DNA from: Escherichia coli
GTDB lineage: Bacteria; Pseudomonadota; Gammaproteobacteria; Enterobacterales; Enterobacteriaceae
Direction: 5' to 3' (one strand)
NCBI RefSeq assembly: GCF_011045215.1
Contig: NZ_CP049201.1
Length of the DNA stretch: 64,000 bases
Positions 35,516-64,000 of the stretch are shown here, one piece after another. The translations under genes and the position numbers were made by a program. The stretch's first letter is position 1. The number at the start of each line of letters is the position of its first letter. A model generated the notes under the pieces. The model searched no databases, had not been told where the DNA came from, and saw only the letters and a program-made list of their open reading frames with translations.

Positions 35516-35521
35516 GATTAT

Positions 35522-35559
35522 AAGCGCATGTTATTGTTTAACATGCGCTTTTTTATTTT
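35522..35559 (+). terminator. Rho-independent terminator of serX
   Basis: 12-bp stem AAGCGCATGTTA / TAACATGCGCTT followed by TTTTATTTT. Confidence 0.8.
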
Positions 35560-35664
35560 CCCTTTCAGACAGTATGCCATCGGGTATGCCATCTGAAACC
35601 GGTTTATATGCCCCGCGATCATATCTTATCGGACAATTTCCGATCTTTGAGCATACTGGCAAAG

Positions 35665-36507
35665 CTATACTGCCAGCATATCAGGATAGTGTTTTGCGAT
35701 AATATCATTCAGTCTGTCAACCAGTTCTGGTTTTCTGAACGTGATATGCGCGGAGCCCTTCTTAAAGTATCTGATGCTGAACATCTCATCTTCATAGCTC
35801 TCTTTACCCTGAACAGACTGAATGTGATCATCCAGACGAAGGGTGATGTTTCCCCGGTTGTCGGGGATTGGTTTACCGCTGAACAGGTGCAACATTCTTT
35901 CCAGATCGGCGAGTCGATCTGCCTGTTGCCCGGTGATAAGGTGAAATCCCCACCGGTCCCACCTCACCAGGTTGTTGACGATAATTTTACTGCCAAATTT
36001 GCAGGGGCAATTGGTTTTGTAATTCCAGTTCAATCCTCTGAAGACGTTGATCACCCCTCGCTCAAACACCTCATCCTTATTCTGGTGCAGTTGTTCAAAT
36101 GTGCTCAGAATGTTCGCTTCGCTGATTTCCGGAAAATTATCGTACTCCAGTGACCGGTACCATGTATCACGGGCCTGCGTATCCATTAATGACAGCATCC
36201 CGGAACGTTGCATCAGGTCACGCCAGATTTCGCGATCAAGATTCCGGGTAATGGCTTTCATTGCTGTTTCGGGTTTCTCCATCAGCCAGCAACCGCAGCG
36301 AAAATCCTGTTTCATGGCCCAGTCCGGGGCAGTTTTACCTCCGATGCTTTCCGTCAGCACCGAGATTTCAGCCAGTTGTCGGATAAGTGTGTCGATTTGC
36401 AACAGTGTACTCTTTCGTACAGCCAGAATGTGGCGAATGCTGGTTGAGCAGATAACGTCCGTATGCCCGTTGACCACTTCCGGACGGGAGATTGTGATAT
36501 CTGACAT
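35665..36507 (-). CDS. DUF4942-type protein (last gene of CP4-like modules)
   Basis: 280 aa, MSDITISRPEVVNGHTDVICSTSIRHILAV.... I recognise it as the conserved protein that follows the cbtA-family region in E. coli CP4-type islands. The family name is from memory. Confidence 0.75.
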   Translation of the reverse strand: MSDITISRPEVVNGHTDVICSTSIRHILAVRKSTLLQIDTLIRQLAEISVLTESIGGKTAPDWAMKQDFRCGCWLMEKPETAMKAITRNLDREIWRDLMQRSGMLSLMDTQARDTWYRSLEYDNFPEISEANILSTFEQLHQNKDEVFERGVINVFRGLNWNYKTNCPCKFGSKIIVNNLVRWDRWGFHLITGQQADRLADLERMLHLFSGKPIPDNRGNITLRLDDHIQSVQGKESYEDEMFSIRYFKKGSAHITFRKPELVDRLNDIIAKHYPDMLAV

Positions 36508-36591
36508 AATCGATATTCCTTTTTGCAGATAAATGAAAACGCCAGCCCTGTTCAGGCTGGCGTCAGAGGAATGAAGTCTGGTGAGTGAGCT

Positions 36592-36789
36592 TCACCGGTT
36601 CTGGTGCAGAAGCTGCAGATGACGCAGGGTACGGACATCCTCCCGGGCCTGTTCGATACAGGGCAACAGTGCTGCTGAATCCGTTTTATCCTCATCGTTG
36701 TCAAAGATAATTCCCGATCCGCAGTCGATATTGTCCTGCAGCCACGCAATCAGAATATCCAGCGCTGTTTCCGTGGTTAATGATTTCAT
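36592..36789 (-). CDS. Small DUF957-type protein (YkfH/YpjJ-like)
   Basis: 65 aa from the internal Met MKSLTTETALDILIAWLQDNIDCGSGIIFDNDEDKTDS. Family name from memory. Confidence 0.65.
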   Translation of the reverse strand: MKSLTTETALDILIAWLQDNIDCGSGIIFDNDEDKTDSAALLPCIEQAREDVRTLRHLQLLHQNR

Positions 36790-36800
36790 GTTGTTTCTGG

Positions 36801-37289
36801 TTACCAGTCGAAAGTGGGTAAACCCGGCAGGCATTCAGCGCTGGCATCCAGATGAATGAGACTGACGCCATAACGTCGGGTAAGTGTGACAACCAGACGA
36901 CGGAACGTTTTTGACAGGCCCAGGCGCTTAAGCCGCAGAACCGGGTATGACCACGCATCGGTACGTAACAGATATCCGCTACCTGTGAAATGAATCCATT
37001 CTGATTCGCCGGTGTCATTCGTCTGATGTGACAGCGAGTACAGCCAGGCGTTGTCCTTTTCCGTGATATGTGCGGTACTGCAGCGTATGCCGGTAAGGGC
37101 AGCAAATGGTGGCGTGCAGTCTGCTGAGGTCCGGTCAGATTCATCAACAACACGAAGGGAGTAGCCGTTATCGCAGACCATGTTAATCAGTTCAGCGAGC
37201 TCAATACCATCAACGTCAACGACAATGCGCCCCATGTTCAGTGCCTGCACGTTAATGCTGTCGGCTTCCAGCGTCAGGGCCAGTTTCAT
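36801..37289 (-). CDS. DUF5983-type protein (YeeW-region protein)
   Basis: 162 aa. Its start overlaps the cbtA-like stop (ATGA). It has the conserved position after the toxin gene. Confidence 0.65.
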   Translation of the reverse strand: MKLALTLEADSINVQALNMGRIVVDVDGIELAELINMVCDNGYSLRVVDESDRTSADCTPPFAALTGIRCSTAHITEKDNAWLYSLSHQTNDTGESEWIHFTGSGYLLRTDAWSYPVLRLKRLGLSKTFRRLVVTLTRRYGVSLIHLDASAECLPGLPTFDW

Positions 37290-37663
37290 TGTTTCGCCCC
37301 CGGATGTTTACCCAGGGTAATGTTATTTACCGTTCTGTAGTTGTCGCGTGTCATCAGGCCGGTTGCCCGGCGTGCCCGGAGGATATCAATACTGTTTATT
37401 AACTGAGAACGGGTACAGGCGCTGAATCCCGGCTGGTCGGTACGCACCAGTGCGTATTTTTCAACGAGAAAGTTCACCGCATTGCACAGTGAAATGCCTG
37501 CCTCAATATGCTGCTCAATCACACGTTCATCAGCGAACGGTGTGTCATTCAGTGTGAGACCGTAATGCTGGTCCAGCAGTCGGGTGAGCAGTGTCTGCCA
37601 GATGGTGACGGGAGACGGGCAGCGCGATGCCTCCCGTACGTGTGTGTCAGGTAATGTTTTCAT
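37286..37663 (-). CDS. cbtA: CbtA/YeeV/YkfI-family type IV toxin (cytoskeleton inhibitor)
   Basis: 125 aa from the internal Met MKTLPDTHVREASRCPSPVTIWQTLLTRLLDQHYGLTLNDTPF, typical of the CbtA family. The exact paralogue is not determined. Confidence 0.85.
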   Translation of the reverse strand: MKTLPDTHVREASRCPSPVTIWQTLLTRLLDQHYGLTLNDTPFADERVIEQHIEAGISLCNAVNFLVEKYALVRTDQPGFSACTRSQLINSIDILRARRATGLMTRDNYRTVNNITLGKHPGAKQ

Positions 37664-37709
37664 CTTAAGTTCTCTGTAACTGGTAGTGCTAAAGGTGAGA
37701 TATTCGGGG

Positions 37710-38084
37710 TTATGAGGTGGTTGCGGGTGCCAGTGTCGAATAAACAGCCATATAAACGTAACCACAGCTGCCGAGGGTGTCGGCTTCGCAGGTCAGCCCT
37801 CTGGCATACAGCGTGACGGTATGCTGATGGCGGGGATTCAGTTCACCGCTGGTGAGCATGAGTTCCAGTTGTTTCATCAGCAGCGGAAAGGCCTGGTCCA
37901 GATGGTACGCATCCGCGTCGCTGAACCGGCCTCTGATACCGGCGCGGTCTGCAAGGTAATGCAACCGGTTACCCTCCTGCACCAGACGTGCTCCGAAACA
38001 AGGTGTCACGGTACAGGGCAGTCCCCACCAGGGGCGGCCGCGATTGTCGTCGGGATGAGTTGTCTCATGGAGTGTGTCTGACAC
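37710..38084 (-). CDS. cbeA: CbeA/YeeU/YafW-family type IV antitoxin
   Basis: 124 aa, ...WGLPCTVTPCFGARLVQEGNRLHYLADRAGIRGRFSDADAYHLDQAFPLLMKQLELML. Lies immediately upstream of the toxin. Confidence 0.85.
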   Translation of the reverse strand: MSDTLHETTHPDDNRGRPWWGLPCTVTPCFGARLVQEGNRLHYLADRAGIRGRFSDADAYHLDQAFPLLMKQLELMLTSGELNPRHQHTVTLYARGLTCEADTLGSCGYVYMAVYSTLAPATTS

Positions 38085-38158
38085 AATAAAATCCTCACAA
38101 AAAATCAGTTAAGAATGGTCCGGTGGCAGCGATAATTCTGCTCATCATTTCTCCTGAC

Positions 38159-38380: not shown

Positions 38381-38448
38381 GGTGGGATACCTCTGAAGAC
38401 AGAAGATAAAAGTGAAAACAGGTGTGATGTGGTTGTGACGGTGACGGG

Positions 38449-38922
38449 TTAAAGCAGACCGTGTTCCGCAAAGGAGAAAACCTGGTTGCCTCCGACTATC
38501 AGATGGTCCGGCACCCGGATGTCCACCAGGGCCAGCGCCTGTACCAGACGTTCGGTGATAAGCCGGTCTGCCTTACTGGGTGTGACTTCACCGGACGGAT
38601 GATTGTGTGCCAGCACCACGGCTGCGGCATTGTGATACAGGGCGCGTTTAATCACTTCCCGGGGATGGACTTCCGTGCGGTTGATAGTGCCGGTGAAGAG
38701 GGTTTCACCGGCAATCAGCTGATTCTGGTTATTCAGATACAGCACCCGGAATTCTTCACGCTCCAGTCCCGCCATGTTCAGAATCAGCCATTCCCGTGCC
38801 GCATGCGTGGAGGTGAAGGCCACGCCGGGTTCATGAAGATGGCGGTCCAGGGTTTTCAGGGCCCGCTGAATGAGACTGCGCTCGCCGGGCGTCATCTCTC
38901 CGGGCAGAAAGGAAAGCTGTTG
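38449..38922 (-). CDS. RadC-like JAB/MPN domain protein (YeeS/YkfG/YfjY family)
   Basis: 157 aa from the internal Met MQQLSFLPGEM. JAMM motif AHNHPSGEVTPSKAD. Confidence 0.85.
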   Translation of the reverse strand, partial: QQLSFLPGEMTPGERSLIQRALKTLDRHLHEPGVAFTSTHAAREWLILNMAGLEREEFRVLYLNNQNQLIAGETLFTGTINRTEVHPREVIKRALYHNAAAVVLAHNHPSGEVTPSKADRLITERLVQALALVDIRVPDHLIVGGNQVFSFAEHGLL

Positions 38923-38940
38923 CATTGCCCCTGCCTCCAT

Positions 38941-39426
38941 TCAGTCGATGATGCGCATAATGGCGCTGCATTCCGGATGTTGCAGGGCGTAATCCCGCAA
39001 CCGATAATAATGGACCGTCATGGCATAACACTCCGTACGACAGGCATGATGACTGTACGTCATCAGACAGGCGGCAATGCCGGCGGCTTCCGGACTCATT
39101 TCAGCGCGGTTACCGTTCATGGCATTGAACAGTACCCATGTTTCGTCATCATCGTCATCCGGTTCGGGTGCCATAAATGCCCCGCCGTTGTTCAGGGTGT
39201 ACAGATTCCAGATACCACCGCAGTAGTCTTCGCACAGACGGTCCATCCAGCCGAAGACACGGGGTTCCAGGGTCACCCACTGTGGAATGAGGCCAAAGTG
39301 CTGCGGCCAGAAGCTGATGCGCTGTTCATCAGGGACGGGAGTGGCAACCAACTGAGACTGGTTATTCCCTGATGCAGTAGTTACGGAAACAGAAGGTGTG
39401 GTGGAGCTATGCGAAAAGGTTGTCAT
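38941..39426 (-). CDS. Antirestriction protein (YfjX/YafX, ArdB/KlcA-like)
   Basis: 161 aa, ...FWPQHFGLIPQWVTLEPRVFGWMDRLCEDYCGGIWNLYTLNNGGAFMAP. Confidence 0.8.
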   Translation of the reverse strand: MTTFSHSSTTPSVSVTTASGNNQSQLVATPVPDEQRISFWPQHFGLIPQWVTLEPRVFGWMDRLCEDYCGGIWNLYTLNNGGAFMAPEPDDDDDETWVLFNAMNGNRAEMSPEAAGIAACLMTYSHHACRTECYAMTVHYYRLRDYALQHPECSAIMRIID

Positions 39427-39517: not shown

Positions 39518-40336
39518 TTAGCGCATGCTCTCCAGCAGCGTTTCTGCCATCACCCACAATGCGCGATTGAGCTTAATGTCCGTGTCGATGCTGTGAATGG
39601 CACGGGTGTGGATACGTTTTCCTTTAGCGCTGCGACCGGAAATTCCGCCTTTCAGCATATTCTCCTGAATGGTCTGATAAGCACTCCACAGGTCCTTACC
39701 GTAATCCTCCCTGCGTCGTGGTGTCAGAATGTCGGCGGTGGTGACGGGCTGATGTTCGTCACCATAACGGTAAGTCAGTGCCGCCTGTGCCAGCGCCTGG
39801 TGTGCCGGTGGCGGCAGAATCAGCGACTGCATGGCATCACGCTTTTCCTCAATCCGGTCAAAAACGCCCACCACTTCGTAAGCCCCTTCAATAACTTTCT
39901 CCACCACGTCTCCCCGGTGCGGAACACGCACCTCTCCCAGAGACTGACCGCAGACGCACCCGTTCTGACAAACGAATCTGAAGTAACCCGGCAGCATCTG
40001 GTAGCTGGAGGTACCGTCATGGGAATTGAGCAGGATGATTTCCGGGACATGCTGTCCGTTTATCTCTCCGGCCCGCCGCAGACGCAGCATGTGTTTGGTA
40101 TACCCCCGGCGGCCCGGGTCACGTACGCGGGTCTGGCAGGCGAAGAAGGGCTGAAAGCCCTCCCGCTGCAGACTTTCCAGCACGGTGATGGTGGGGATAT
40201 ACGTATAGCGTTCACTGCGGGAGGTATGCCGGTCTTCCCCAAAAATACCGGGTACATAGTGCATCAGCTCTTCATGTGTCAGCGGACGGTCACGGCGTAT
40301 CTGGTTCGCATAACCAAAACGACTTGCTAATCGCAT
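39518..40336 (-). CDS. DUF932 protein (YfjQ/YafZ family)
   Basis: 272 aa, MRLASRFGYANQIRRDRPLTHEELMHYVPGIFGEDRHTSRSERYTYIPT. Confidence 0.8.
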   Translation of the reverse strand: MRLASRFGYANQIRRDRPLTHEELMHYVPGIFGEDRHTSRSERYTYIPTITVLESLQREGFQPFFACQTRVRDPGRRGYTKHMLRLRRAGEINGQHVPEIILLNSHDGTSSYQMLPGYFRFVCQNGCVCGQSLGEVRVPHRGDVVEKVIEGAYEVVGVFDRIEEKRDAMQSLILPPPAHQALAQAALTYRYGDEHQPVTTADILTPRRREDYGKDLWSAYQTIQENMLKGGISGRSAKGKRIHTRAIHSIDTDIKLNRALWVMAETLLESMR

Positions 40337-40586: not shown

Positions 40587-40610
40587 GAAGCATGAAACTG
40601 ACTTCAGGGA

Positions 40611-41066
40611 TCAGTTAACGTTTTTTCCGGAAACGGTAATTAGCAGTGGATGGTAGTCCTGGGGATCGAAAACCGATAACGGCAGACTGACACGATGGCC
40701 GTTACTTTCTTCAGTTGCTTTAATGATTTCGGTTGTGGCGACATTTTCCACGCACTCCGTTTCCAGAAATGCGTCTGTGGTTCGCGTGGCATCACTGTCA
40801 CCAAAGGCTTCCGTTTCCATTTTTCTGGTCACCAGCCTCTGACCATATTTGTCTTTGAGTTGCAGAGTGATGGTGAGGGGGCCAAATCCTTCTCCGTTTC
40901 CGCCATTATCCAGCCGGAACTGGTAAGCACAAATATTTCCCGGGAGCCATATCGTATCTGTATTGCGTATACTGATGTAACGTTGATCCTGTGCCCGGAG
41001 TGGGGCAGACCACGTTAACCCCAGAATGACGCCGGTAATAATGCAGGTTTTGAACAGGTGAATCAT
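40611..41066 (-). CDS. Small secreted protein, possibly IrmA-like
   Basis: 151 aa with signal peptide MIHLFKTCIITGVILGLTWSAPLRA. It sits after ag43-yeeR. The IrmA assignment is from remembered genomic context only. Confidence 0.6.
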   Translation of the reverse strand: MIHLFKTCIITGVILGLTWSAPLRAQDQRYISIRNTDTIWLPGNICAYQFRLDNGGNGEGFGPLTITLQLKDKYGQRLVTRKMETEAFGDSDATRTTDAFLETECVENVATTEIIKATEESNGHRVSLPLSVFDPQDYHPLLITVSGKNVN

Positions 41067-41141: not shown

Positions 41142-43664
41142 TTATGCCGGTAACTCCGGGGGTAATGCTTCTTCCAGCCGGTTAACCATATTGCCGAGAT
41201 GGGATGCATCATATTCCATGACGGGGCGTTGCCTGATGATACTGACCACCAGTGGTTTGATTAACATATTGGTCGCGGCCCGTTGTTGTATACCGGCGGC
41301 GAAAATGATCTCCAGAGCATTCTGATCGATAACACGGGCCAGATTCGCGTTCAGATTTTCTGTTTCATGTCCGGTCAGCAGGAAACTGCCGGCAAGCCAT
41401 GTCACCTGTTCCTGAATCATTGCCAGAATTTTGACGCGATCTTCTTCAACCAGCGCTCCGGCAATTTTTCCTGATACAGCGGAGGCAATCATTCCCCCCA
41501 GAACACCGCCAACCACACGCCCTGTCAGTGCACCAAATGGTCCCAGTGGACTGAACAGTATCCCGCCCGCCACTGACCCGACAGCTCCACCTGCCACACC
41601 GGAAGATGCCACGGCAAGATTCCTGATGAACTGCGTACCGGAGATCCGTCCCCGCAACATTTTGATCATGTCAGGGCCGGTTGTGACAGCTACCAGTGCC
41701 AGAGATGTCACCAGCGTACCCTTCATCACTTTGTTCAGGGCACTGATATTTCCTGCACCGGTCCCCTTCTGAAGAGCCAGTCGGACAGTCGGGCTGGCAG
41801 TCGAAAAATCAATGTGCTTCAGCATACCCTGAACAACACTGAGCCGGTGGAGTTGCTGGGTTGTGACGTAGACAGCCAGTGTGCGGGTGAAGGTTTTTCC
41901 TGCCTGGACAGCAGCTGTCTGCAGAGCAGCATCGCGATCGCCGGTGCTGAGCCAGAAGACCGATGCCGTCAGGGCAAAACTGATCCCTCCGGCCGCCAGA
42001 CTGACAACCGAACCCTCGGCAATATCATAAGTGACCGATTCGATGGTCCCGAACCGGGTGATATTACGGGCCTGAGTATAAGTCAGATGTCCCCGACGAA
42101 TCAGCCGGGACGCTTCTGCGGGATCGATTACACCGGGTACTTTACCTTCGCGGATCTTATTCCTCATGGTTTCAACAGCGCCGGCATACTGATCACGGGG
42201 GACTTCCAGTTGCATGGGGCCATTATTTCCCATGTAACGATACTGTCCGTTTTGTCCGTCGAATGCCGCACCGACGCTACGGGCTGCAGTTGAACAATAT
42301 TTCGTCTGGATTTCTGTTCCGCTGACCAGTCTGTCTGCTCCATTTCTGGCATTATTATCACCGAGGATCCGTGCGTTTTTCAGACGGATTCTGTCGACAA
42401 TATGGTTTCCCCGTTCAGCGGCAAACCCATGTCCCTGCCCTCCGGAAGCAAACATTTTCTCATTTGTACTCCAGGTTTCCGGCAGTTTCATGAGAATCAG
42501 ACCATTCGCCGTTGCATCGGAAATAAAACTGTTGTAGGGGCGTTCATAAATTTCCTGACACAGTGTTTCTGTTTCGCGACAAAGAGAGGAGCAGTACCAT
42601 TCCGGATCCGGCTTATGATTTTCCGGGGCATGATGTACTTCTGTCAGCCCGCAGGAGGCACAGACACGAAGCTCATCCACGTGATGGAATGATACAAAAC
42701 GGCGACCTTCTGAAAAGGGATACCAGTCACCGCCGTCCAGGCAACGATCGAGAAAATCGTCATTCGCTTCCGGTGATAAATTCAGGCGGTTCCGGAAGAG
42801 TGTTTTCAGTTCATCAGGTGTGAATGACAGGTTCTCTTTCAACTGTTCGTTAAACCCTGCCATGTTTCTTTCATACCAGGCATTGTTCAGTAACCAGTTT
42901 CCGTCTGCCAGTTCAAATTCCCTCAGCTCTCCCCGGGAAATCCGTTGAGAAATAAGCGTCAGCCAGATGCGCTCCGTCAGTGAGTCAGGAAGGCTGTAAT
43001 CGTTTTGCAAACTGGTCAGCCACGATTTACTGTTGAGCACCGGTTGTTCTTCCAGTGTCTGGCTGATGGCACAGGTCAGTTTTTTCAGCGCCTGGATTTG
43101 GCTGGCCGCCCATAGCAGCGTCACTAATGCAGCCAGCCAGTACAACAACCCGCCCCACCACATCAGTGACGGTGAAATATCGTACTGTAACGCGATCAAT
43201 GGTGCGCATGCAGAACAAGCCATAAGGAAAAAGGCAGTATAAAAACAGCAGTAATATCCGTTAATTTCCTTGCTGATATCTTCTGGTGTGATCCCGTTCT
43301 GCTGAATGTTTTTGATCTGCAGGGGAACAGCCAGCAGACCACCGGCGAGAGCGGTGGTCAGAATAAATTTCACGGAGTCAAAGGTGTGAGACTCCAGCGC
43401 AATATGTTTACCATCAAGTCCCCACATGAAGCTGATGATCATTCCGGCAATCGTCAGAAATACGCCTGCCAGCCAGCGAATATGGAACAACCGGGTTATG
43501 CGTTCGGTGATATAGCCAGCCAGTAAGGCCGGGCCGAACAGACACAGCAATATGAGCCCTGCCAGCGCAGAAGCCGTGCTGATTAATGCTCTGAACAAAA
43601 GGCGAAGAATGGCAAATCCTGCGATCAGCAGGATCAGCGCGCCGACTATCTGTAACATAGTCAC
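41142..43664 (-). CDS. Large YeeR-like inner membrane protein
   Basis: 840 aa. It has N-terminal TM helices, a CxxC...CxxxC cysteine cluster and a glycine-zipper-rich C-terminal hydrophobic region. Its position after ag43 matches yeeR in CP4-44. Confidence 0.8.
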   Translation of the reverse strand: MTMLQIVGALILLIAGFAILRLLFRALISTASALAGLILLCLFGPALLAGYITERITRLFHIRWLAGVFLTIAGMIISFMWGLDGKHIALESHTFDSVKFILTTALAGGLLAVPLQIKNIQQNGITPEDISKEINGYYCCFYTAFFLMACSACAPLIALQYDISPSLMWWGGLLYWLAALVTLLWAASQIQALKKLTCAISQTLEEQPVLNSKSWLTSLQNDYSLPDSLTERIWLTLISQRISRGELREFELADGNWLLNNAWYERNMAGFNEQLKENLSFTPDELKTLFRNRLNLSPEANDDFLDRCLDGGDWYPFSEGRRFVSFHHVDELRVCASCGLTEVHHAPENHKPDPEWYCSSLCRETETLCQEIYERPYNSFISDATANGLILMKLPETWSTNEKMFASGGQGHGFAAERGNHIVDRIRLKNARILGDNNARNGADRLVSGTEIQTKYCSTAARSVGAAFDGQNGQYRYMGNNGPMQLEVPRDQYAGAVETMRNKIREGKVPGVIDPAEASRLIRRGHLTYTQARNITRFGTIESVTYDIAEGSVVSLAAGGISFALTASVFWLSTGDRDAALQTAAVQAGKTFTRTLAVYVTTQQLHRLSVVQGMLKHIDFSTASPTVRLALQKGTGAGNISALNKVMKGTLVTSLALVAVTTGPDMIKMLRGRISGTQFIRNLAVASSGVAGGAVGSVAGGILFSPLGPFGALTGRVVGGVLGGMIASAVSGKIAGALVEEDRVKILAMIQEQVTWLAGSFLLTGHETENLNANLARVIDQNALEIIFAAGIQQRAATNMLIKPLVVSIIRQRPVMEYDASHLGNMVNRLEEALPPELPA

Positions 43665-46628: not shown

Positions 46629-46845
46629 CAGCTTTTCCTTACAGAGGGTGAATAAAAAAGCCGGTACCCACAAATGTGGATACCGGCAGGTACAAAACAG
46701 CATGGTCAGATAAAGTGGTTTTTCCCGGACATAAATGCTTCCCCTCTCTCATCCGCCAGAGAAGTATCAGTCCGTTGTGTGCAATTCCGTTCTGCATGAT
46801 GAAGAGATTCAGCTGCCTTTTCGCAGGCCATTAACCACTACAAAC

Positions 46846-47872: not shown

Positions 47873-48087
47873 ACATGTATTCCCGGTGAAAAAAGACAAA
47901 ACCCCGCGCACCGGAAAAGTGGCGGGGGACTCACGGAGATAATATCTGCCTAAAATTATTTGGAATGCAGGTATATGCAGCTAATTTGTATCGGCTCATT
48001 AGTACAGAACTAAACCTCATCTGACAGTCCGCTCTGTGCCAAGAGCGGACTTTGCAAAATGGGGGTTATTTCAATCAAAACGTAACG

Positions 48088-54100: not shown

Positions 54101-54757
54101 ATGGCTTATGATTACAGCGCCAGCCTCAACCCGCAAAAAGCTCTGATCTGGCGTATCGTCCATCGGGACAATATCCCGTGGATTCTGGATAACGGGCTGC
54201 ACTGCGGCAACAGTCTGGTGCAGGCGGAAAACTGGATCAATATCGGCAACCCGGAGCTGATCGGCAAGCGTGCCGGGCATCCGGTACCTGTCGGAACGGG
54301 CGGGACACTGCATGACTATGTGCCGTTTTATTTTACCCCCTTCTCGCCAATGCTGATGAACATCCACAGCGGGCGCGGCGGCATTAAGCAACGCCCCAAT
54401 GAGGAGATCGTTATTCTGGTCAGCAACTTGCGGAACGTGGCAGCACACGACGTGCCCTTCGTGTTTACCGACAGCCATGCTTACTATAACTGGACCAACT
54501 ACTACACCAGTCTGAATAGTCTGGACCAGATCGACTGGCCCATTTTGCAGGCACGGGACTTTCGCCGCGATCCAGACGATCCGGCTAAATTTGAACGCTA
54601 TCAGGCAGAGGCGCTAATCTGGCAACACTGCCCGATCTCTCTGCTGGATGGGATAATTTGTTACAGCGAAGAGGTCAGGTTACAATTAGAGCAATGGCTG
54701 TTTCAGCGTAATCTAACAATGTCCGTTCACACACGGGCTGGATGGTACTTCTCATGA
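54101..54757 (+). CDS. darT: DarT-like (DUF4433) DNA ADP-ribosyltransferase toxin
   Basis: 218 aa. Motifs [29 protein letters not shown] and YQAEALIW, ending AGWYFS. These closely parallel DarT as I remember it. Confidence 0.85.
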
Positions 54758-55821
54758 TCACATATACACAAGGCAATTTACTGGACGCACCGGTGGAAGC
54801 TCTGGTGAATACGGTTAATACCGTCGGTGTCATGGGGAAAGGCATCGCGTTGATGTTTAAAGAGCGCTTCCCCGAAAATATGAAAGTCTATGCCCTCGCT
54901 TGCAAACAAAAGCAGGTGATCACCGGCAAAATGTTCATTACCGAAACCGGGGAACTGATGGGACCGCGCTGGATTGTTAATTTTCCGACCAAACAGCACT
55001 GGCGCGCTGATTCCCGCATGGAGTGGATTGAAGATGGCTTGCAGGACTTACGCCGCTTTTTGATTGAAGAGAACGTGCAGTCCATCGCCATTCCACCACT
55101 GGGCGCAGGCAACGGTGGTTTGAACTGGCCGGACGTTCGGGCGCAGATTGAATCTGCCCTTGGCGACCTTCAGGACGTTGATATCCTGATTTACCAACCG
55201 ACTGAAAAATACCAGAACGTTGCCAAAAGCACTGGCGTAAAAAAGCTCACTCCCGCCAGAGCCGCCATCGCTGAACTGGTGCGTCGCTACTGGGTATTGG
55301 GGATGGAGTGCAGCCTACTGGAAATCCAGAAACTGGCCTGGCTGTTACAACGCGCCATTGAGCAGCATCAACAGGACGATATCCTCAAACTGCGGTTTGA
55401 AGCTCACTATTATGGCCCCTATGCGCCCAATCTGAACCATCTGCTTAATGCGCTGGACGGCACCTATCTAAAAGCCGAGAAACGCATCCCGGACAGCCAA
55501 CCGCTGGATGTGATCTGGTTTAACGATCAAAAAAAAGAACACGTTAATGCGTATCTGAACAACGAAGCCAGAGAGTGGCTACCTGCGCTGGAGCAGGTCA
55601 GCCAGTTAATTGACGGCTTTGAATCGCCGTTTGGTCTGGAGTTGCTGGCAACCGTAGACTGGTTGCTGAGCCGTGGCGAATGTCAACCAACGCTGGATTC
55701 CGTTAAGGAAGGACTGCACCAGTGGCCTGCGGGCGAACGCTGGGCCAGCCGTAAGTTGAGGCTGTTTGATAATAATAATCTGCAATTTGCCATTAACCGC
55801 GTAATGGAGTTCCATTGCTGA
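54754..55821 (+). CDS. darG: DarG-like macrodomain antitoxin (ADP-ribosyl-DNA glycohydrolase)
   Basis: 355 aa from [40 protein letters not shown] (macrodomain) plus a C-terminal domain. Its ATG overlaps the darT stop as ATGA. Confidence 0.85.
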
Positions 55822-55839: not shown

Positions 55840-58800
55840 TTGAGTACCGTGGGCCAGCGCGAACGCGCCACACAGCAGCGTCTGATTCAGTTTTTTGTTG
55901 AAGATTTAGGATACCGCCATCTGAGTCACCGCACCGGGTACACCGGGAACAGCAACATCGACACTAATATACTGAGCGCGTGGCTAAAACGGCGCGGCGT
56001 TAATGATACGTTGATCACCCGGGCGTTGCGGCAACTGGATTCCGCCGCCGCCCTGGGCGAAGGCAAAAAACTCTATTACGCCAATAAAGAGGTCTATCGC
56101 CTGCTGCGTTACGGCGTGAAAGACAAAGAAGGTGCAGGCGAGCAGAACCAAACCGTGTGGCTGATTGACTGGGCCAACCCACAAGCCAATGATTTCGCCA
56201 TCGCCGATGAGGTGACGGTCAAAGGCGAGTACTGCAAGCGCCCGGATCTGGTGCTGTACGTTAACGGCATTGCGCTGGGCGTGATTGAACTTAAGCGTTC
56301 GTCAGTGCACGTCAGCGAAGGTATCCGGCAGAATCTCGATAATCAAAAGAAAACCTTTATCCGCGATTTCTTCACCACTATGCAGTTAGTGATGGCAGGC
56401 AACGATACGCAGGGCCTGCGCTACGGCACCATCGAAACCCCGGAAAAATACTATCTGGAGTGGAAAGAAGATAATCCAGGCGACTATACACATAAACTCG
56501 ACTTTCATTTAAGTCGTCTGTGTAGCAAATCCAGGCTGTTGGATATCGTCCATAATTACATTGTCTTTGATGTCGGGGTGAAAAAACTCTGCCGCCATAA
56601 TCAGTTCTTCGGCGTCGAGGCGGCTAAGCAACATATTGCCCGTCGTGAAGGCGGTATTATCTGGCACACACAGGGATCGGGTAAAAGCCTGACGATGGTC
56701 TGGCTGGCGAAGTGGATCCGTGAAAATGTGCCAAACTCCCGCGTGTTGATTGTGACTGACCGCACCGAACTGGATGAACAGATCGAAAGCGTGTTTATGG
56801 GCGTGAATGAAGATATTTATCGCACCTCCAGCGGCAACGATCTTATCGCAACGCTCAATCATCCTAACCCGTGGCTTATTTGCTCGCTGGTGCATAAATT
56901 TGGTTGTCGCAGCGAAGCTGAAGACAATGCGGCTACCGACGCCTTTATCACCGAATTACAGCAGTCCCTGACGAAAACATTCCGCGCCAAAGGCGATCTG
57001 TTTGTTTTTGTGGACGAGTGCCACCGCACACAATCCGGCAAGCTGCATAACGCCATGACTGCCATTCTGCCGGACGCCCTGTTTATCGGTTTTACCGGCA
57101 CACCGCTGATGAAGAAAGATAAGAAGAAGTCGGTTGAGGTGTTCGGCCCTTATATCCATACCTATAAATTTGATGAAGCGGTGGCCGACGGTGTGGTGCT
57201 GGATCTGCGCTACGAGGCGCGCGATATTGACCAGTATCTGACATCAGAGAAAAAGGTCGATGACTGGTTTGAAGCCAAGACTCGCGGTTTGTCGAATTTA
57301 GCCAGGACCCAGCTTAAGCAAAAGTGGGGATCAATGCAGAAGCTGCTCTCCAGCAAGTCGCGGCTGGAGCAGATCGTTAACGACATTTTGCTGGATATGG
57401 ATACCCGTCCACGCCTGATGGACGGGCGCGGCAACGCCATGCTGGTATGCAGCAGTATCTATCAAGCCTGCAAGGTTTACGAGATGTTCAGCCAGACCGA
57501 GCTGGCAGGAAAAGTAGCGATTGTGACCAGCTATCGCCCCGATGCCGCCAGCATCAAAGGCGAAGAAACGGGCGAAGGGTTAACGGAGAAACTCTCTAAA
57601 CACGCCACCTATCGTAAAATGTTGGCTGACTATTTTGAACAAAGTGAAGAGAAGGCCGCCGCACGCATTACCGAGTTCGAGCGGGAAGTGAAACAACGTT
57701 TTATTGAAGAGCCGGGGCAAATGCGCCTGCTTATCGTGGTGGACAAGCTGTTGACTGGCTTTGACGCGCCGTCCGCCACCTATCTCTACATTGATAAAAC
57801 CATGACCGACCATACGCTGTTTCAGGCGATTTGTCGGGTGAACCGGCTGGACGGTGAGGATAAAGAGTATGGCTATATTATCGATTATAAAGATCTGTTC
57901 CGTTCGCTGGATAAAGCGATTACCGATTACACCACGGGCGCGTTTGATGATTACGATCGGGACGATGTGGCCGGGTTGCTGAAAGACAGGCTGGAGCAGG
58001 CGCAACTGGATCTCGACAGCGCGCTGGAGATGGTTCGCAGCTTATGTGAGCCCGTCAAAACCCCGCGCAGCCTGCAGGACTATCAGCACTATTTTTGCGG
58101 TAAATCAGGAGAGAATCAGACTTCGTTAAACGAAAAAGAGGCGCTGCGCCTGACATTTTACCAGTGCGTCGCCCGTCTGCTACGCGCTTATGCCAGCATC
58201 GCCAATGAAATGCCGGAAGCAGGCTACACTGCCGAAGAGGTAGAGAGCATTCGCGCCGAAGTCGCTGAATTCGAAAAACTGCGCTATGAGATTAAGCTGA
58301 CCAGCGGCGATCTTCTGGATATGAAGCGCTTTGAACCCGCTATGCGTCATTTACTGGATATGTATGTTCGCGCCGATGGTAGCGAAGTGCTGATGGATTT
58401 TGAAGAGTTAAGTCTGATTGAACTGATTGTCGAGAAAGGCTTGGCGGCGACCGTCGCCCTGCCGGATGATATCCGTAATAATCAGGATGCGATGGCGGAA
58501 ACCATCGAAAACAACGTGCGCAAAACCATCGTGGATGAAAACCCGGTTAACCCAAAATACTATGGACGCATGTCGCAGCTGCTGGATGAACTGATTACCC
58601 TTCGCCGACAAAATGCGCTCAATTATCAGCAGTATCTGGAACGTATCCGCGATTTGTGTAAACAGGTCATCCGCCCGGAGCAAACCGCCGGAGCGTGCTA
58701 CCCTGCCACCATGGATACACAAGCAAAGCGCGCCTTCTATGACAACTTCGGCCACGACGAGGTACTGGCGACCCGCATAGATACGACAATTCGCTATACC

Positions 58801-58935
58801 AAAAGGGCAGAGTGGATTGGCGATCGTTTTAAAGAACGGGAAATTGCCAACGCATTACGTGAAGAGACCGCCAGCTATAATATTGATATTGATGAGGTGA
58901 TAGCGCTTGCCCGTCAGCAGAAGGAATATCACTGA
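55840..58935 (+). CDS. hsdR: Type I R-M restriction/translocase subunit HsdR
   Basis: 1031 aa. PD-(D/E)xK nuclease RPDLVLYVNGIALGVIELK, helicase motif I HTQGSGKSLTM and motif II FVDECHRTQ. TTG start preceded by AAGGAG. Confidence 0.93.
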   Translation: MSTVGQRERATQQRLIQFFVEDLGYRHLSHRTGYTGNSNIDTNILSAWLKRRGVNDTLITRALRQLDSAAALGEGKKLYYANKEVYRLLRYGVKDKEGAGEQNQTVWLIDWANPQANDFAIADEVTVKGEYCKRPDLVLYVNGIALGVIELKRSSVHVSEGIRQNLDNQKKTFIRDFFTTMQLVMAGNDTQGLRYGTIETPEKYYLEWKEDNPGDYTHKLDFHLSRLCSKSRLLDIVHNYIVFDVGVKKLCRHNQFFGVEAAKQHIARREGGIIWHTQGSGKSLTMVWLAKWIRENVPNSRVLIVTDRTELDEQIESVFMGVNEDIYRTSSGNDLIATLNHPNPWLICSLVHKFGCRSEAEDNAATDAFITELQQSLTKTFRAKGDLFVFVDECHRTQSGKLHNAMTAILPDALFIGFTGTPLMKKDKKKSVEVFGPYIHTYKFDEAVADGVVLDLRYEARDIDQYLTSEKKVDDWFEAKTRGLSNLARTQLKQKWGSMQKLLSSKSRLEQIVNDILLDMDTRPRLMDGRGNAMLVCSSIYQACKVYEMFSQTELAGKVAIVTSYRPDAASIKGEETGEGLTEKLSKHATYRKMLADYFEQSEEKAAARITEFEREVKQRFIEEPGQMRLLIVVDKLLTGFDAPSATYLYIDKTMTDHTLFQAICRVNRLDGEDKEYGYIIDYKDLFRSLDKAITDYTTGAFDDYDRDDVAGLLKDRLEQAQLDLDSALEMVRSLCEPVKTPRSLQDYQHYFCGKSGENQTSLNEKEALRLTFYQCVARLLRAYASIANEMPEAGYTAEEVESIRAEVAEFEKLRYEIKLTSGDLLDMKRFEPAMRHLLDMYVRADGSEVLMDFEELSLIELIVEKGLAATVALPDDIRNNQDAMAETIENNVRKTIVDENPVNPKYYGRMSQLLDELITLRRQNALNYQQYLERIRDLCKQVIRPEQTAGACYPATMDTQAKRAFYDNFGHDEVLATRIDTTIRYTKRAEWIGDRFKEREIANALREETASYNIDIDEVIALARQQKEYH

Positions 58936-59651
58936 TGCCAATCATGCAAATAGGCTCGTTACACTTGCTGGTCAACCGTAAGGCGATTAAGAATCTGCAT
59001 ATCAGCGTGCTGCCGCCTGATGGCAAAGTCCGCGTTTCAGCGCCGGAACATATGACGGAGACGGCGATTCGTATGGCGGTTGCTTCACGCTTTCGCTGGA
59101 TCAGAAAACAGCAGCAGGATTTCGCCAGACAGCCTCGTCAATCAGAGAGGGAAATGGTCAGCGGAGAGTGCCACTATCTTTGGGGCCGAAGATATCGCCT
59201 ACTTGTGATTGAGCGTCACGGGCGTCACGAAGTAAAAGTTGCGGGAAATAATAAGCTCCAGCTTTATGTTCAACCGGGAACCCGTGATGAAAATAAGGCA
59301 TTGGCGTTAAGTGAATTTTATCGACATGAACTAAAACAGCAGGTGGCTAAGCTTCTACCTGAATGGCAAGACCGAATCGGTGTTCCCCTAACATTCTGGG
59401 GCATCAAAAAGATGAAAACCTTTTGGGGCACCTGTAACACTACAACAAAACGAATCTGGCTCAATCTGGAGCTAATTAAGAAGCCGCCGGAGTGTCTGGA
59501 GTATATTCTGGTGCATGAACTGGTTCATCTTCTGGAACGTCACCATAATGCTCGCTTCCGGTTGCATATGGATCGGTTTATTCCTGACTGGCGTGAGCGT
59601 CGGGATTTGTTAAATAATATGCCGTTAGCGTTTGAGGCATGGGAGTATTGA
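58935..59651 (+). CDS. M48/DUF45 (YgjP-like) zinc metallopeptidase
   Basis: 238 aa with HEXXH in ILVHELVHLLERHHN. Its ATG overlaps the hsdR TGA (TGATG). Confidence 0.85.
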   Translation: MPIMQIGSLHLLVNRKAIKNLHISVLPPDGKVRVSAPEHMTETAIRMAVASRFRWIRKQQQDFARQPRQSEREMVSGECHYLWGRRYRLLVIERHGRHEVKVAGNNKLQLYVQPGTRDENKALALSEFYRHELKQQVAKLLPEWQDRIGVPLTFWGIKKMKTFWGTCNTTTKRIWLNLELIKKPPECLEYILVHELVHLLERHHNARFRLHMDRFIPDWRERRDLLNNMPLAFEAWEY

Positions 59652-60184
59652 TTGAGCCTGTAACTGTTTTTTGTCCATAAATTAACCTTCATTTGATGCT
59701 GGATAGAACATATCAAAATCAGACAATTACACAAATCTATGTACAGGCTCAACTCCTGCCATGGAACGTAGTACTCACCAATAAGTAAGCATCAATACGG
59801 CGCTCCGTTAACGCTTACTAGCATGGTTATCTCCTTAAAAAATTGAGGCGACAACTATGCTGACACAGGGGGTTACTCACCGATCTCCTTCACGGTAATA
59901 CGCAGTTCTTCAGAACCCGCCTCCGATACCAGCCTGGCGGTCGCCCCGGCGCAAGCAAAATAAATCGACCATTGTCAGACTGCGATCGTTCGGATGCCCC
60001 GCCACCGACGCATCAGTATGAGTTAACCGAAACGATACAAAATTGCCTGAGAATCATTACGCTGGCTGATGGAAGGCACACCAAAAGCCTCTGCACAGAA
60101 CGATGTTCGGCAACAACAGAAACATGATTGCGTTCATGGCAATAGTCATTCGTACCGTTACAGGCGGTATTGATTTATTACAGA

Positions 60185-60210
60185 CAAGCGGTACATATAT
60201 GTACCGCTTG
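60185..60210. repeat. Perfect 26-bp palindrome
   Basis: CAAGCGGTACATA|TATGTACCGCTTG, 50 bp downstream of the minus-strand OMP gene stop. No clear T-run on either strand. Confidence 0.6.
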
Positions 60211-60258
60211 GTTAAGTAAAAAAACAGATATGAACGCTATTATGTTCATTCTACTTTA

Positions 60259-60816
60259 TTAAAAGCGATAACCCACGCCAATATTGAATCCATTAATGGA
60301 ATAATTATCGCCAAGTTTTGCTCTGGTTCCTTCATATCCGGCATTAATTGTAATATTACTTGTCGGATTGATCATTACCCCGGCAGCATAAGCAAAAGAT
60401 GTGGATTTTTTCGAAATATTTTCTCTGGCGAAATAACCATCAACGTTTGTCCATGCTGTTTTACCATCAGCTTTAACATGCGCCACGCCGCCAGCCGCAT
60501 ACAGTGACATATAATCGTTAATGCGCCATACGGGGCCGGTCAGTAAGGAATAATATTTTGCATCAACCTGGTTTTTAATTGAATCGCCATATGAATGATA
60601 TTCCTGATTACCATCCCCTTTCATCCAGGAGAAACTGCCCATAATACTGACCGGGGAGTCCCATTCATACCTGTACTGCAGGTTTACCCCTCTAATATTC
60701 TTGAAGTTCTGAATTTTACTCTGTGCATAACCGACAGAAAACGAATGGTTGTCAGCCAGCACGGAACCGCTTGCCACTGATAATATGATGGCTGAAAGAA
60801 CTGACAGTTTTTTCAT
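60259..60816 (-). CDS. Ail/Lom/OmpX/PagC-family 8-stranded outer membrane protein
   Basis: 185 aa, signal peptide MKKLSVLSAIILSVASGSVLA, SVGYAQSK start and ...GFNIGVGYRF C-terminal beta-signal. Confidence 0.85.
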   Translation of the reverse strand: MKKLSVLSAIILSVASGSVLADNHSFSVGYAQSKIQNFKNIRGVNLQYRYEWDSPVSIMGSFSWMKGDGNQEYHSYGDSIKNQVDAKYYSLLTGPVWRINDYMSLYAAGGVAHVKADGKTAWTNVDGYFARENISKKSTSFAYAAGVMINPTSNITINAGYEGTRAKLGDNYSINGFNIGVGYRF

Positions 60817-61081
60817 TTTATTATCTCCATTGTTAATGAGAGTTATTTGATGAAATAATGATGCTAATATTTCTATCTGATGTCAATCACTCTGAGGGTG
60901 GTTGATACGTCAGAGGAACAACAGCTACATTAATATGCTATTTCAACCGGTTATCAGCATTAATTACAGCATACTTGTTCTGAATATCTCCGCATTCACG
61001 ATCAGCTTTACGACAGACAGTCATTTCTCTGTCAAAAGCATGTACCTCGTCGTAGCTGAGGTAGTTATTCTCAACAACATT

Positions 61082-61315
61082 TCAGAACCCCTTAACTTTC
61101 ATGATATGCAACAAACCAATACCCAAGCCTAAGATCCCCCCCCCATACACACTCATTTTTAACAGTCTAGAAAACTGAAAAACTTCAAATGATATTGGGG
61201 CATTCAAATAAAAATACATAAATATCTTCAGAAGAAGATAAAAAATCGAACCGACTATAAACAAACCAAATATGCATACAGTCATTAATAAGACAACAAT
61301 AAGAAGGTTCTTCAT
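61082..61315 (-). CDS. Small polytopic membrane protein, candidate CdiI-type immunity protein
   Basis: 77 aa, almost entirely hydrophobic (2-3 TM helices). Its ATG overlaps the stop of the upstream toxin fragment as ATGA. Confidence 0.65.
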
Positions 61316-62343
61316 TTCCCAGCCTCCATTGCATCTTTCTTTTTCTGGATAATGGAGCTTCCAAACTCAGATGATAAACTACCACCCGCATTACCCACAG
61401 CACCAGGGATCTTACTCGGTACCATTTCTTTAGATAGACCTAACTGCCCTTTAACTTCAGTATATTTTAGTAGAGTCGGATCGAATTTAGGATTCCAGCC
61501 ACCGGTTATCCATTTACCGATTGTATTTGCAGCAGGCTTGACCACATAATTGCCAACCCCATATCCAAACCCGGCCCCCGCTCCATTTGTAATCGCCCCA
61601 GTAAGAGGATCATCTCCGTTTATGGCGTTGGTTAATGCTCCACCTGCCGCATTCCAGGCTATTGTCCCTTTCCAGCCCTGCCCCATGGTGATTACATTGA
61701 CCCATCCTGCAATGATTGCATTTTCAGGATCAACTGAACTATCTACCATGTAACCAATTCCTGCATTTGCACCTGTGCCAAGAGCCCACATGGCCTGAGC
61801 ACCGCCAGGTAAGAGAGCTACACTACCAGTGGCCAACGCTCCGGCATACGCTTTATTGACTGCTTCTCCTCGCTTACAGGCTTCACCGCCTGGGGCATCG
61901 TTACAGGAAAGTACATCTGCGCCATGCGTCTGAGCAGCTTTGCTCTGCTCGGACTCTGTGCCACCAACCAAGTTATTCTCAGCAATGTTCTTCCCAACAC
62001 CAGCCCCTGCAGCCGCGCCAGCCACATCGCCACTGGCAATGCCGCCAGCCATACCCGCTGACAGCGTTGCCAGCGTGCTTATCGTCTGCTTCTGCTCTTC
62101 ACTGAGGTCTGACTGTTTCACGCCCGGATACAGCATTCCGATCGCTCTGGCTGCCAGCTCTCCCGTTGCTGCGCCTGCTGCACCAGCAGCAACATTATTA
62201 CTCTGCATTGCCGCTACTGCACCGCCCAGAATGGCGTGAGCAATGGCCTTTACTGCCGGGTCTTTTTCTGTTGATTTCAGCAGGTATGCCAGTTCCGGAG
62301 CCGAAGCTCCCGCCAGTACTGCACCAACGTCACCACCTGCCAG
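61312..62343 (-). pseudogene. cdiA: Orphan cdiA-CT module: start-less 3' fragment of a CdiA/haemagglutinin-type exoprotein (pretoxin region plus Gly-rich toxin tip)
   Basis: The frame is open from the in-frame TAG at 62344-62346, with no plausible start. It reads ...[79 protein letters not shown]...GKNIAENNL. That is the CdiA pretoxin region ending in a VENN-type (AENN) motif, followed by a ~215-aa glycine-rich C-terminal domain. Confidence 0.75.
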
Positions 62344-63048
62344 CTATGGCTGGAGATGGTGGATGTTACCGATAATCAAGAAGCCTTAGATATAAGGCAA
62401 TGTTTTATCTTTCTTTCATACGAAAACCAGTGCTGCCATACTAGCCCTTTTCCTGTGACATCTAAGCGAGCTCATGTTTATCGGGAAGGGTGTTAGATCA
62501 TTGTTAATCATACACAGGTAATTATGCAGCGGTTATGCATAACTTCATTTCGAGCGTGTGATAACGCCAACACAATCACCAGAATTATAAAATAAAATCA
62601 CAAAACCTGAGAACATGTCACATTTTATCACATTAATAATTTTTCTTTATGATTTCATAACTATTTACAGCCTTTTATTAAGCCAAAAAAAGTTAAATTG
62701 CAATTATTGCATAATTATTCGCGCTACAGTTTTTTTACTTTTAAAATCATATAATATATAATCACCTTAAAACAGCAAACTCCACAAAATAATAACAAAT
62801 AGAAATATTTCCACCCAAATAATGATTATCTATTCATGAGCTGACATTATGAAATTAATCATTATTTGATGCAAATAACACAAATTAAAACAAACACCTT
62901 AATATCCATTCTTGTGTGAATCTCATCACAATAATGTTTATTTTACCGCCTAGTATGAACCACGAAATCAATTGAACTTAGCCGCCATGAAATTAAATAC
63001 ACAACATGGCGCATACCTTTTTATTCTGAAAAAATTAAAGGAATAATT

Positions 63049-64000
63049 ATGGAAAAGCATTACGTCGGTTCTGAAATTGGTCAATTGCGTAGTGTTATGC
63101 TGCACCGCCCAAATTTAAGTCTGAAACGTTTGACACCATCGAATTGTCAGGAACTGCTTTTCGATGATGTACTCTCGGTTGAACGGGCAGGTGAAGAGCA
63201 TGACATCTTCGCAAATACGCTGCGCGATCAGGGGGTGGAAGTCCTGCTGTTAACAGACCTCCTGACACAAACCCTTGATATTAAAGAAGCGAAAACCTGG
63301 CTACTGGAGACGCAAATTTCTGACTACCGCCTCGGACCTACCTTTGCGGGCGATGTGCGCAGCTGGCTGGCGGACATGCCGCACCGTGAACTGGCGCGAA
63401 GATTAAGCGGCGGATTAACTTACGGTGAAATTCCGGCTGCCATTAACAATATGGTGGTGGATACCCACACGTCTAATGACTTTATTATGAAGCCGCTACC
63501 GAATCATTTATTTACCCGCGATACCTCCTGCTGGATTTATAACGGTGTTTCTATTAACCCGATGGCCAAACCAGCCCGTCAACGTGAAACCAATAACCTC
63601 CGGGCAATATATCGCTGGCACCCGGCATTTGCCGACGGCGATTTTATTAAGTATTTCGGCGACGAAAATATTTATTACGACCACGCCACTTTGGAAGGTG
63701 GCGACGTATTAGTGATTGGTCGTGGGGCGGTATTGATCGGCATGTCTGAACGCACAACACCGCAGGGCGTGGAGTTCCTCGCCAACAGCCTGTTCAAACA
63801 TCGTCAGGCCGAGCGAGTGATCGCCGTTGAGCTGCCAAAACACCGCTCCTGTATGCACCTTGACACCGTCATGACCCACATCGACGTTGACACTTTCTCC
63901 GTTTACCCGGAAGTGGTGCGCAAAGACGCCCAGTGCTGGACGCTCACTTCGAACGGACGCGATGGCCTACAACGGACCCAGGAAACCGACCTGTTGCACG
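63049..64000 (+). CDS. arcA: Arginine deiminase, N-terminal ~317 aa (runs off window end)
   Basis: ATG 63049 after [47 protein letters not shown]...[10 protein letters not shown]...[10 protein letters not shown]...CMHLDTV are ADI family motifs. Absent from the ORF track because there is no stop. Confidence 0.9.

Follow-up and report, generated by a model that had tools for sequence, protein, structure and literature searches.

The accessory DNA beside serX in an Escherichia coli chromosome is most probably the attL side of an island of the SRL PAI/OI-48/PAI-serX family in normal orientation

The stretch of DNA analysed here, hereafter the window, comprises 64,000 nucleotides of Escherichia coli contig NZ_CP049201.1 and carries accessory DNA from the 3' end of the tRNA gene serX up to the window end (35516-64000). 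With an estimated probability of about 0.9, this region is the left (attL) side of a genomic island of the family formed by the pathogenicity island (PAI) SRL PAI, the O islands OI-43/OI-48 (SpLE1, TAI), and PAI-CFT073-serX, inserted in the normal orientation of that family. A sequence-only reading of the same DNA had proposed instead an old, immobilised, composite island, in which a CP4-type module points the wrong way and no integrase accompanies the tRNA. Neither inversion nor tandem accretion is necessary to account for the layout of the window.

The only tRNA gene in the window, a tRNA-Ser(GGA), is named serX because it is preceded by ghrA in a flank that is 98.6% identical to the serX/ghrA locus of K-12. 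The junction between this gene and the island contains the following features:

35428-35515, plus strand: serX, intact, which forms attL together with the island (ARAGORN and match of the K-12 flank).
35502-35515, plus strand: attachment core CCCCCTCACCGCCA, 14 bp, equal to the last 14 nt of serX and present as a sole copy in the window.
35522-35560, plus strand: terminator-like hairpin followed by a T tract (terminator-like hit), supplied by the island in place of the native sequence downstream of serX.
35572-35592, plus strand: two copies, 12 bp apart, of the 9-mer GTATGCCAT, candidate arm-type sites of the integrase.

The core is identical to the direct repeat published for OI-43/48 and SRL PAI (PMC3064760), and in an alignment of attL, attB, and attR the window departs from K-12 immediately after the CCA end of the tRNA. 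The 9-mer GTATGCCAT appears three times in the window, against 0.46 occurrences expected, and two of the three form the pair listed above. Beside the start of the integrase gene in strain MLI114, a complete relative described below, the identical pair recurs with unchanged spacing, and it is from this distribution that the pairs are proposed as candidate arm-type sites.

The first island gene, which encodes a DUF4942 protein, ends 149 bp from serX, a distance that the sequence-only reading had put at some 150 bp. From this gene up to that of a GTPase, all genes lie on the minus strand:

35665-36507, minus strand: DUF4942 protein, last gene of the backbone (Pfam PF13708, E=9e-69).
36801-37289, minus strand: DUF5983 gene (Pfam).
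37286-37765, minus strand: CbtA-family type IV toxin (Pfam PF06755, E=1e-62), counted from the first possible start; the annotated homologue has 124 amino acids.
37710-38084, minus strand: CbeA/YeeU antitoxin (Pfam PF06154).
38449-38940, minus strand: RadC-like JAB protein (Pfam PF04002).
38941-39426, minus strand: antirestriction protein (Pfam PF03230).
39518-40336, minus strand: DUF932 protein (Pfam PF06067).
40611-41066, minus strand: IrmA-family protein (Pfam PF18673).
41142-43664, minus strand: YeeR-like protein of 840 amino acids, named by annotation transfer from collinear genomes and without a strong Pfam match.
43779-46703, minus strand: Ag43/Cah autotransporter adhesin (Pfam AIDA, Autotransporter, and ESPR domains).
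47000-47911, minus strand: GTPase of the YeeP/YkfA type, innermost gene of the conserved tRNA-proximal backbone (Pfam MMR_HSR1).

A DUF987 open reading frame (ORF) is also placed in this block, by annotation transfer from the collinear MLI114 only. With it, the CP4-type gene set (GTPase, DUF932, antirestriction, RadC-like, DUF987, and the CbeA/CbtA pair) is present in the window. The order of the Pfam-supported genes and collinearity indicate a backbone DUF4942...CbtA/CbeA...RadC...DUF932...Ag43/Cah...GTPase that adjoins the intact serX and is transcribed towards the tRNA, and the earlier statement that the integrase-distal end of a CP4-type module abuts serX is therefore accurate, with the YeeR-like gene assigned by annotation.

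What lies at the other end of such an element is seen in complete relatives. Except for the variable part of hsdS, the segment 35300-59750 has a collinear counterpart in strain MLI114, with 92-99.5% identity, and at least 193 complete genomes contain at least 80% of it at one place. In MLI114 the island, inserted at serX, measures ~80 kb and continues with IS (insertion sequence)-rich cargo and a YfjI / Gp2 / AlpA-like block before reaching an intact integrase gene. This gene is on the minus strand, transcribed into the island, and encodes a tyrosine integrase of 400 amino acids with the P4-type architecture (Arm-DNA-bind_3, Phage_int_M, and Phage_integrase). About 160 bp past the integrase start, a copy of CCCCCTCACCGCCA is followed by 'tctttaaagaagagctcgtacgaaggtacgggctttttttt', which is the sequence found after serX in the empty K-12 site. 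The attL of the window consists of the tRNA and island DNA, and the attR of MLI114 of island DNA, the 14-bp core, and native DNA; aligned with the attB of K-12, these sequences show a textbook single integration. Strain N1131 carries the same element at serW, in the interval from clpA to infA, and the integrase proteins of the two strains are identical. That one element, with the same integrase, can occupy either of these two identical tRNA genes indicates that it moves as a unit. Both relatives share the left 24 kb of the island and are single elements between direct repeats with a distal, intact integrase. The sequence-only reading had recommended a search for an integrase and for a directly repeated serX 3' end; in these relatives both are present at the distal junction, in a single-integration layout, which speaks against an origin by inversion or successive accretion.

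The same junctions are widespread. Among 5426 complete E. coli genomes, with a junction counted at 80% coverage or more, the attL junction (35330-35900, comprising serX or serW and DUF4942) was detected in 1351, O157:H7 (99.8% identity) and CFT073 included, and the junction formed by the MLI114 integrase and attR in 1259, with O157:H7 strains among the matches. DUF4942 beside the tRNA was read directly in O157:H7 TR01, O111:H21 15A, N1131, and CFT073. The supposed wrong-way orientation is consequently the standard order at serX and serW, as exhibited by these 1351 genomes, by OI-48 and PAI-CFT073-serX, and by the published OI-43/48 and SRL PAI. The sequence-only reading had declared beforehand that it should be abandoned if this gene order proved to be standard for serX islands, and that is the case.

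This organisation agrees with that reported by Bielaszewska et al. (2011) for OI-43 and OI-48 of strain EDL933, in which a P4-family integrase (Z1559) is located at the clpA/ycdU end, beside the cryptic ser'W/ser'X, while the last gene, Z1664, adjoins the intact serW/serX (PMC3064760). These islands are bounded by perfect 14-bp direct repeats, TGGCGGTGAGGGGG (PMC3064760), a sequence that equals the core of the window read on the opposite strand. Their integrase shares 99% identity with the SRL PAI integrase, and complete excision has been reported to occur at ~2e-3 per cell for OI-43 and ~2e-4 for OI-48 (PMC3064760). According to a review, SRL PAI, PAI-CFT073-serX, and others are inserted at serX, and int is required for precise excision of SRL PAI (PMC7545054).

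Compared member by member, OI-48/SpLE1/TAI of O157:H7 (with OI-43 at serW) shares with the window the integration site, the 14-bp core, an attL 99.8% identical, and the backbone of DUF4942, CbtA/CbeA, RadC, antirestriction, DUF932, Cah/Ag43, and GTPase genes in the same orientation. It differs in holding patatin/RdcB/dynamin genes where the window has IrmA and the YeeR-like gene, and in its cargo, which consists of ter, ure, and iha rather than the defence cassette RRDM, orphan genes of contact-dependent inhibition (CDI), and an arginine deiminase operon. In OI-48 the ycdU-side end carries the integrase (PMC3064760), and the window stops short of its own distal end. SRL PAI resembles the window in its serX/serW target and 14-bp direct repeats (PMC3064760), a likeness taken from the literature, and differs in its cargo of antibiotic-resistance genes and the fec operon. 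PAI-CFT073-serX, with which PAI-UTI89-serX, PAI-RS218-serX, and PAI-IHE3034-serX are grouped, reads dgcT-int...GTPase-Ag43-YeeR-like-IrmA-DUF932-antirestriction-JAB...CbtA-DUF5983-DUF957-DUF4942-serX and has the IrmA plus YeeR-like variant of the backbone that is found in the window. However, it extends over 113 kb, carries S-pilus and salmochelin cargo, has a backbone with pseudogenes and inserted IS elements, and is without an intact RRDM. In short, two family traits, the insertion at the serX 3' end with a rebuilt 14-bp core and the tRNA-proximal backbone reading towards the tRNA, are found in the window; the third, a distal P4-family integrase with attR, is present in MLI114 and N1131 and lost in strain 21AH126, and the window ends before that region.

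According to the preferred interpretation, islands of this family integrate by means of a P4-type tyrosine integrase, which recombines the 14-bp core of attP, CCCCCTCACCGCCA, with the terminal 14 nt of serX or of its identical paralogue serW. As the attP core points away from int, integration leaves int beside the displaced copy of the serX 3' end (attR, on the ycdU/dgcT side) and, for the same reason, at a distance from the intact tRNA. The opposite end, with the DUF4942...GTPase backbone, adjoins the rebuilt tRNA and provides its new terminator. A variable cargo slot separates the two conserved backbones and is occupied in this case by a GIY-YIG gene, RRDM, the genes of an Ail/Lom protein and of an orphan CDI toxin module, and the arginine deiminase operon. 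The integrase end would then be situated beyond the window, and we infer that the island of the source strain still ends in int and attR.

It had also been argued that the CP4-type module is inverted within an old composite island whose proper arrangement of int and att sites was lost or never existed. The sole support for this proposal is the expectation of integrases on the tRNA side, as in CP4-57 (ssrA-intA) and in a tRNA-Phe island. Against it stand the orientation common to all the serX/serW islands examined and to the 1351 genomes, the direct repeats attL and attR around one collinear element, the same paired 9-mers in the attL island flank and the integrase-side flank, and the intact synteny of the flanking chromosome. 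CP4-6 of K-12, moreover, has this polarity too, although its integrase is only a distant relative, and the inversion must be regarded as extremely improbable.

The order of CP4-6, thrW(+), ykfI-yafW-ykfH-ykfG-yafX...yafZ-ykfA (all on the minus strand), intF(-), and a 3' fragment of thrW, is instructive in this respect. As in the window, toxin-antitoxin, RadC, antirestriction, DUF932, and GTPase genes are beside the intact tRNA, and int is at the far end. Four backbone segments of the two elements are 66-75% identical at the nucleotide level and have the same orientation relative to the tRNA; the GTPase gene (47000-47911) is 71% identical to ykfA. CP4-6 differs in its target, thrW, in the absence of Ag43, and in the absence of DUF4942 beyond the remnant ykfN. 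IntF is only distantly related to the integrase of the serX islands, and hence the distal position of int was not concluded to be a trait of a single integrase lineage. The premise that CP4-type elements carry int beside the tRNA is therefore wrong for CP4-6, whose toxin-antitoxin end adjoins thrW with intF at the far end. An integrase beside the intact tRNA, which is lacking in the window, is found in CP4-57 and not in CP4-6, and for this reason it does not define CP4-type elements. Both polarities occur among them, with int beside the att core in each, and which junction retains int depends on how the attP core is oriented with respect to int. In CP4-57, the integrase beside ssrA is ~10 kb from the GTPase gene, in an interval that includes the defence genes abpAB and rnlAB, contrary to the earlier expectation of an integrase just beyond the GTPase gene. 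Defence genes in the slot adjacent to the GTPase gene thus have a precedent in K-12, and an integrase directly at that place is expected in neither CP4 type.

In relation to the attachment site, it was observed that the empty serX site of K-12 is followed by three further tandem repeats of ~178 bp (RtT small RNA by annotation in other genomes), each of which has the last 19 nt of serX and, with them, an additional copy of the 14-bp core. Such repeats are located at 10980-11580 on the minus strand of the K-12 locus (L002) and at 9265-9540 of locus L005, and MLI114 retains one native copy behind attR. As judged from these sequences, the repeats could be secondary attachment sites or leftovers of past integrations.

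Past the GTPase gene, the sequence-only reading had noticed defence genes, and hsdM, hsdS, darT, darG, and hsdR, as detected with PADLOC, together with an M48/YgjP peptidase gene, are indeed encoded there:

49984, 49993, and 50002, plus strand: RptR operator repeats TAGCTA, TAGCTA, and TATCTA, respectively, with 9-bp spacing (sequence read).
50031-50270, plus strand: rptR, small helix-turn-helix (HTH) gene of 79 amino acids (Pfam HTH_73, E=3.5e-28).
50310-52748, plus strand: hsdM, type I restriction-modification (RM) (PADLOC MTase_I, 1426 bits).
52742-54088, plus strand: hsdS, type I RM (PADLOC Specificity_I).
54101-54757, plus strand: darT, inside the RM operon (PADLOC DarT, E=2e-74).
54742-55821, plus strand: darG, inside the RM operon (PADLOC DarG, E=1.5e-127).
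55840-58935, plus strand: hsdR (PADLOC REase_I).
58935-59651, plus strand: M48/YgjP-like metallopeptidase, end of the cassette (Pfam YgjP-like).

The RRDM system of enteropathogenic E. coli (EPEC) E2348/69 consists of seven ORFs, RptR, HsdM, HsdS, DarT, DarG (DarTG2), HsdR, and M48, protects experimentally against several phages, and is repressed by RptR at TAGCTA repeats (PMC12255303). The segment 49965-59651 has the same seven ORFs in the same order, rptR-hsdM-hsdS-darT-darG-hsdR-M48, with the TAGCTA repeats upstream of the HTH gene. In addition, the accession of DarG in the collinear copy of MLI114, and that of M48 in the copies of EC5654 and 21AH126, are those named in the RRDM paper (PMC12255303). 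By sequence, then, these defence genes are identified as the RRDM cassette, already characterised; protection against phages has been demonstrated only for the EPEC copy. Copies differ in the variable region of hsdS, which in the window (53506-53947) is not collinear with MLI114. This central part of the gene has a low guanine-plus-cytosine (GC) content, while the rest of the cassette is 96-99% identical to that of MLI114, a pattern that suggests a swapped target-recognition domain and a different RM specificity. In PAI-CFT073-serX the GTPase gene is immediately adjacent to a partial hsdS pseudogene (L026, 2000-2108), and this remnant suggests that a type I RM or RRDM-like cassette formerly occupied the same slot there.

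The interval between ghrA and ycdU with tRNA-Ser(GGA) has been listed as defence-island hotspot #25 of E. coli by Hochhauser et al. in 2023 (PMC10121019 supplement). The ghrA side and the tRNA are inside the window, and the ycdU side is beyond its end. The use of this space as a defence hotspot, put forward from the sequence, is thus real, but already catalogued.

The tRNA-proximal backbone could alternatively be the remnant of one element, with RRDM and everything to its right belonging to a second element integrated in tandem at an internal copy of att. GC steps at 48-50, 53-54, and 60-63 kb and IS scars would fit such accretion, and the extra att cores in the RtT-like repeats of K-12 could permit tandem integrations. 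Nevertheless, no second serX 3' end, att core, or tRNA fragment was found in 35516-64000 with up to three mismatches allowed, and the junction between backbone and RRDM is kept in at least 193 genomes, among them full-length elements at two tRNA genes. Furthermore, the low-GC patch in hsdS, to which the step at 53-54 kb belongs, is the variable segment of this gene (53506-53947), non-collinear with MLI114. Tandem accretion is for these reasons considered highly improbable, and a single element of the serX family is retained as the preferred interpretation.

The cargo outside RRDM is less conserved and comprises the following features:

48088-49032, minus strand: GIY-YIG nuclease family gene of 314 amino acids, low GC (named from homologues, a few of which have PF01541).
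59654-59997, no strand assigned: patchwork of IS1414, ISEc23 (IS66 family), and IS3-family fragments, each of at most 100 bp, at a boundary of cargo modules.
60259-60816, minus strand: Ail/Lom family outer-membrane protein (Pfam PF06316).
61082-61315, minus strand: ORF of 77 amino acids downstream of the CdiA C-terminal fragment, putative immunity gene.
61312-62208, minus strand: orphan CdiA C-terminal toxin fragment with a VENN motif (Pfam PT-VENN; CDI annotation nearby in related genomes).
63049-64000, plus strand: arcA (arginine deiminase), 5' part, truncated where the window stops.

Up to 64 kb, neither an intact integrase gene nor an intact transposase gene was detected, as judged by the RefSeq annotation of the collinear MLI114 for 35.5-59.75 kb and by Pfam for the remaining ORFs. 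The earlier statement that the region lacks integrases, transposases, and IS elements accordingly holds for intact copies and fails for IS elements, of which there are fragments at 59654-59997. Collinearity with MLI114 stops inside this patchwork, at 59750, and that with N1131 ends there too. From its sequence, the patchwork looks like the scar of successive, IS-mediated replacements of cargo. GC content is 0.37-0.44 at 48-50 kb, where the GIY-YIG gene is located, and 0.40-0.45 at 60-63 kb, in the region of the Ail/Lom and CdiA genes; another step is seen at 53-54 kb. A draft contig 99.9% identical to the window provides the longest extension, 4.7 kb past its end, with arcC, ornithine carbamoyltransferase, a DcuC-type transporter, and ArgR.

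In complete genomes, the arc/CDI cargo is found at other sites, namely a tRNA-Phe gene in strain 08-00022 and nfeF in strain mip270_22, and consequently was uninformative as a guide to the end of the island in the window. The Ail/Lom and CdiA C-terminal pieces recur in the tRNA-Phe island of 08-00022, and neither cdiB nor a full cdiA is present in the window around the orphan toxin fragment. The set formed by GIY-YIG, RRDM, Ail/Lom, orphan CDI toxin, and arginine deiminase operon is contiguous in 0 of the 5426 complete genomes, and no contiguous match to 59600-64000 was found among them. The closest core flanks, at only 99.6% identity, are those of phylogroup-B1-like strains with different cargo. 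Because other strains have the same pieces of cargo in islands inserted elsewhere, the cargo slot has been reshuffled, probably through IS elements, which is ordinary for the serX-island family. In this sense the island is composite, as had been claimed, with a mosaic cargo marked by GC steps, IS scars, and genes shared with tRNA-Phe and nfeF islands; the inversion or accretion attached to that claim does not hold.

Several observations nonetheless weigh against the interpretation of the region as the attL side of a family island. Its distal end is outside the 64-kb window; to the right of 59750 the cargo is unlike that of every complete relative examined; 56000-64000 is covered at 80% or more in none of the 5426 complete genomes; and the only extension found adds 4.7 kb. 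In addition, 21AH126, with the same left 24 kb, has lost int and attR to an IS3-associated deletion, and the same could have happened here.

The latter point leads to another explanation, in which the island belongs to the same family and has the normal orientation, but its integrase end was deleted in the source strain, fixing it in the chromosome. In 21AH126, which shares the segment from serX to RRDM, the M48 gene is followed by IS600'-EspI'-IS5'-IS3-'pgaA (L014, 44981-49901), and int, attR, ycdU, dgcT, and part of pgaA have been removed, so that this strain is a natural example of an immobilised derivative. The IS scars of the window at 59654-59997, the draft contigs with the same cargo that break soon after the arc operon, and the frequent IS-mediated internal deletions of OI-48 (PMC3064760) point in the same direction. 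However, the numbers of genomes with attL (1351) and with int-attR (1259) are similar, which implies that int is retained in the majority of family islands. Both serX and serW harbour full-length relatives, and the window itself displays no sign of truncation. A deleted integrase end is hence a possible, though doubtful, alternative to an island that still extends to int and attR.

With regard to the remaining cargo, the ORF of 314 amino acids has ~37% GC and a GIY-YIG-like N terminus and is placed between the backbone and RRDM. The protein itself matched nothing in Pfam, PADLOC, or NCBIfam, and neither did the ORFs of 102 and 77 amino acids. Its 72 homologue clusters, from Enterobacterales, Vibrio, Aeromonas, and others, bear the name 'GIY-YIG nuclease family protein'. 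They occur widely on gammaproteobacterial mobile elements, and the homologue of Brenneria is among genes of the type found in integrative and conjugative elements (ArdC, TrwB-like). From its sequence and position, this may be an uncatalogued defence gene. It appears unlikely, in contrast, that two things hold jointly: that the unique cargo was recently reassembled, possibly in an island without int, and that the GIY-YIG gene is perhaps a stand-alone anti-phage gene.

The architecture of the island, the defence cassette, and the hotspot have all been described previously. What the window illustrates is that the rule "integrase next to tRNA" is not universal, since the SRL PAI/OI-48/PAI-serX family and CP4-6 keep int at the far junction. 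Scans that treat tRNA-adjacent islands without an integrase as degenerate or inverted will misclassify the serX/serW loci of about one quarter of E. coli genomes. A further natural context for RRDM is provided as well, since the cassette is carried here by a mobile island for which serX and serW are alternative sites.

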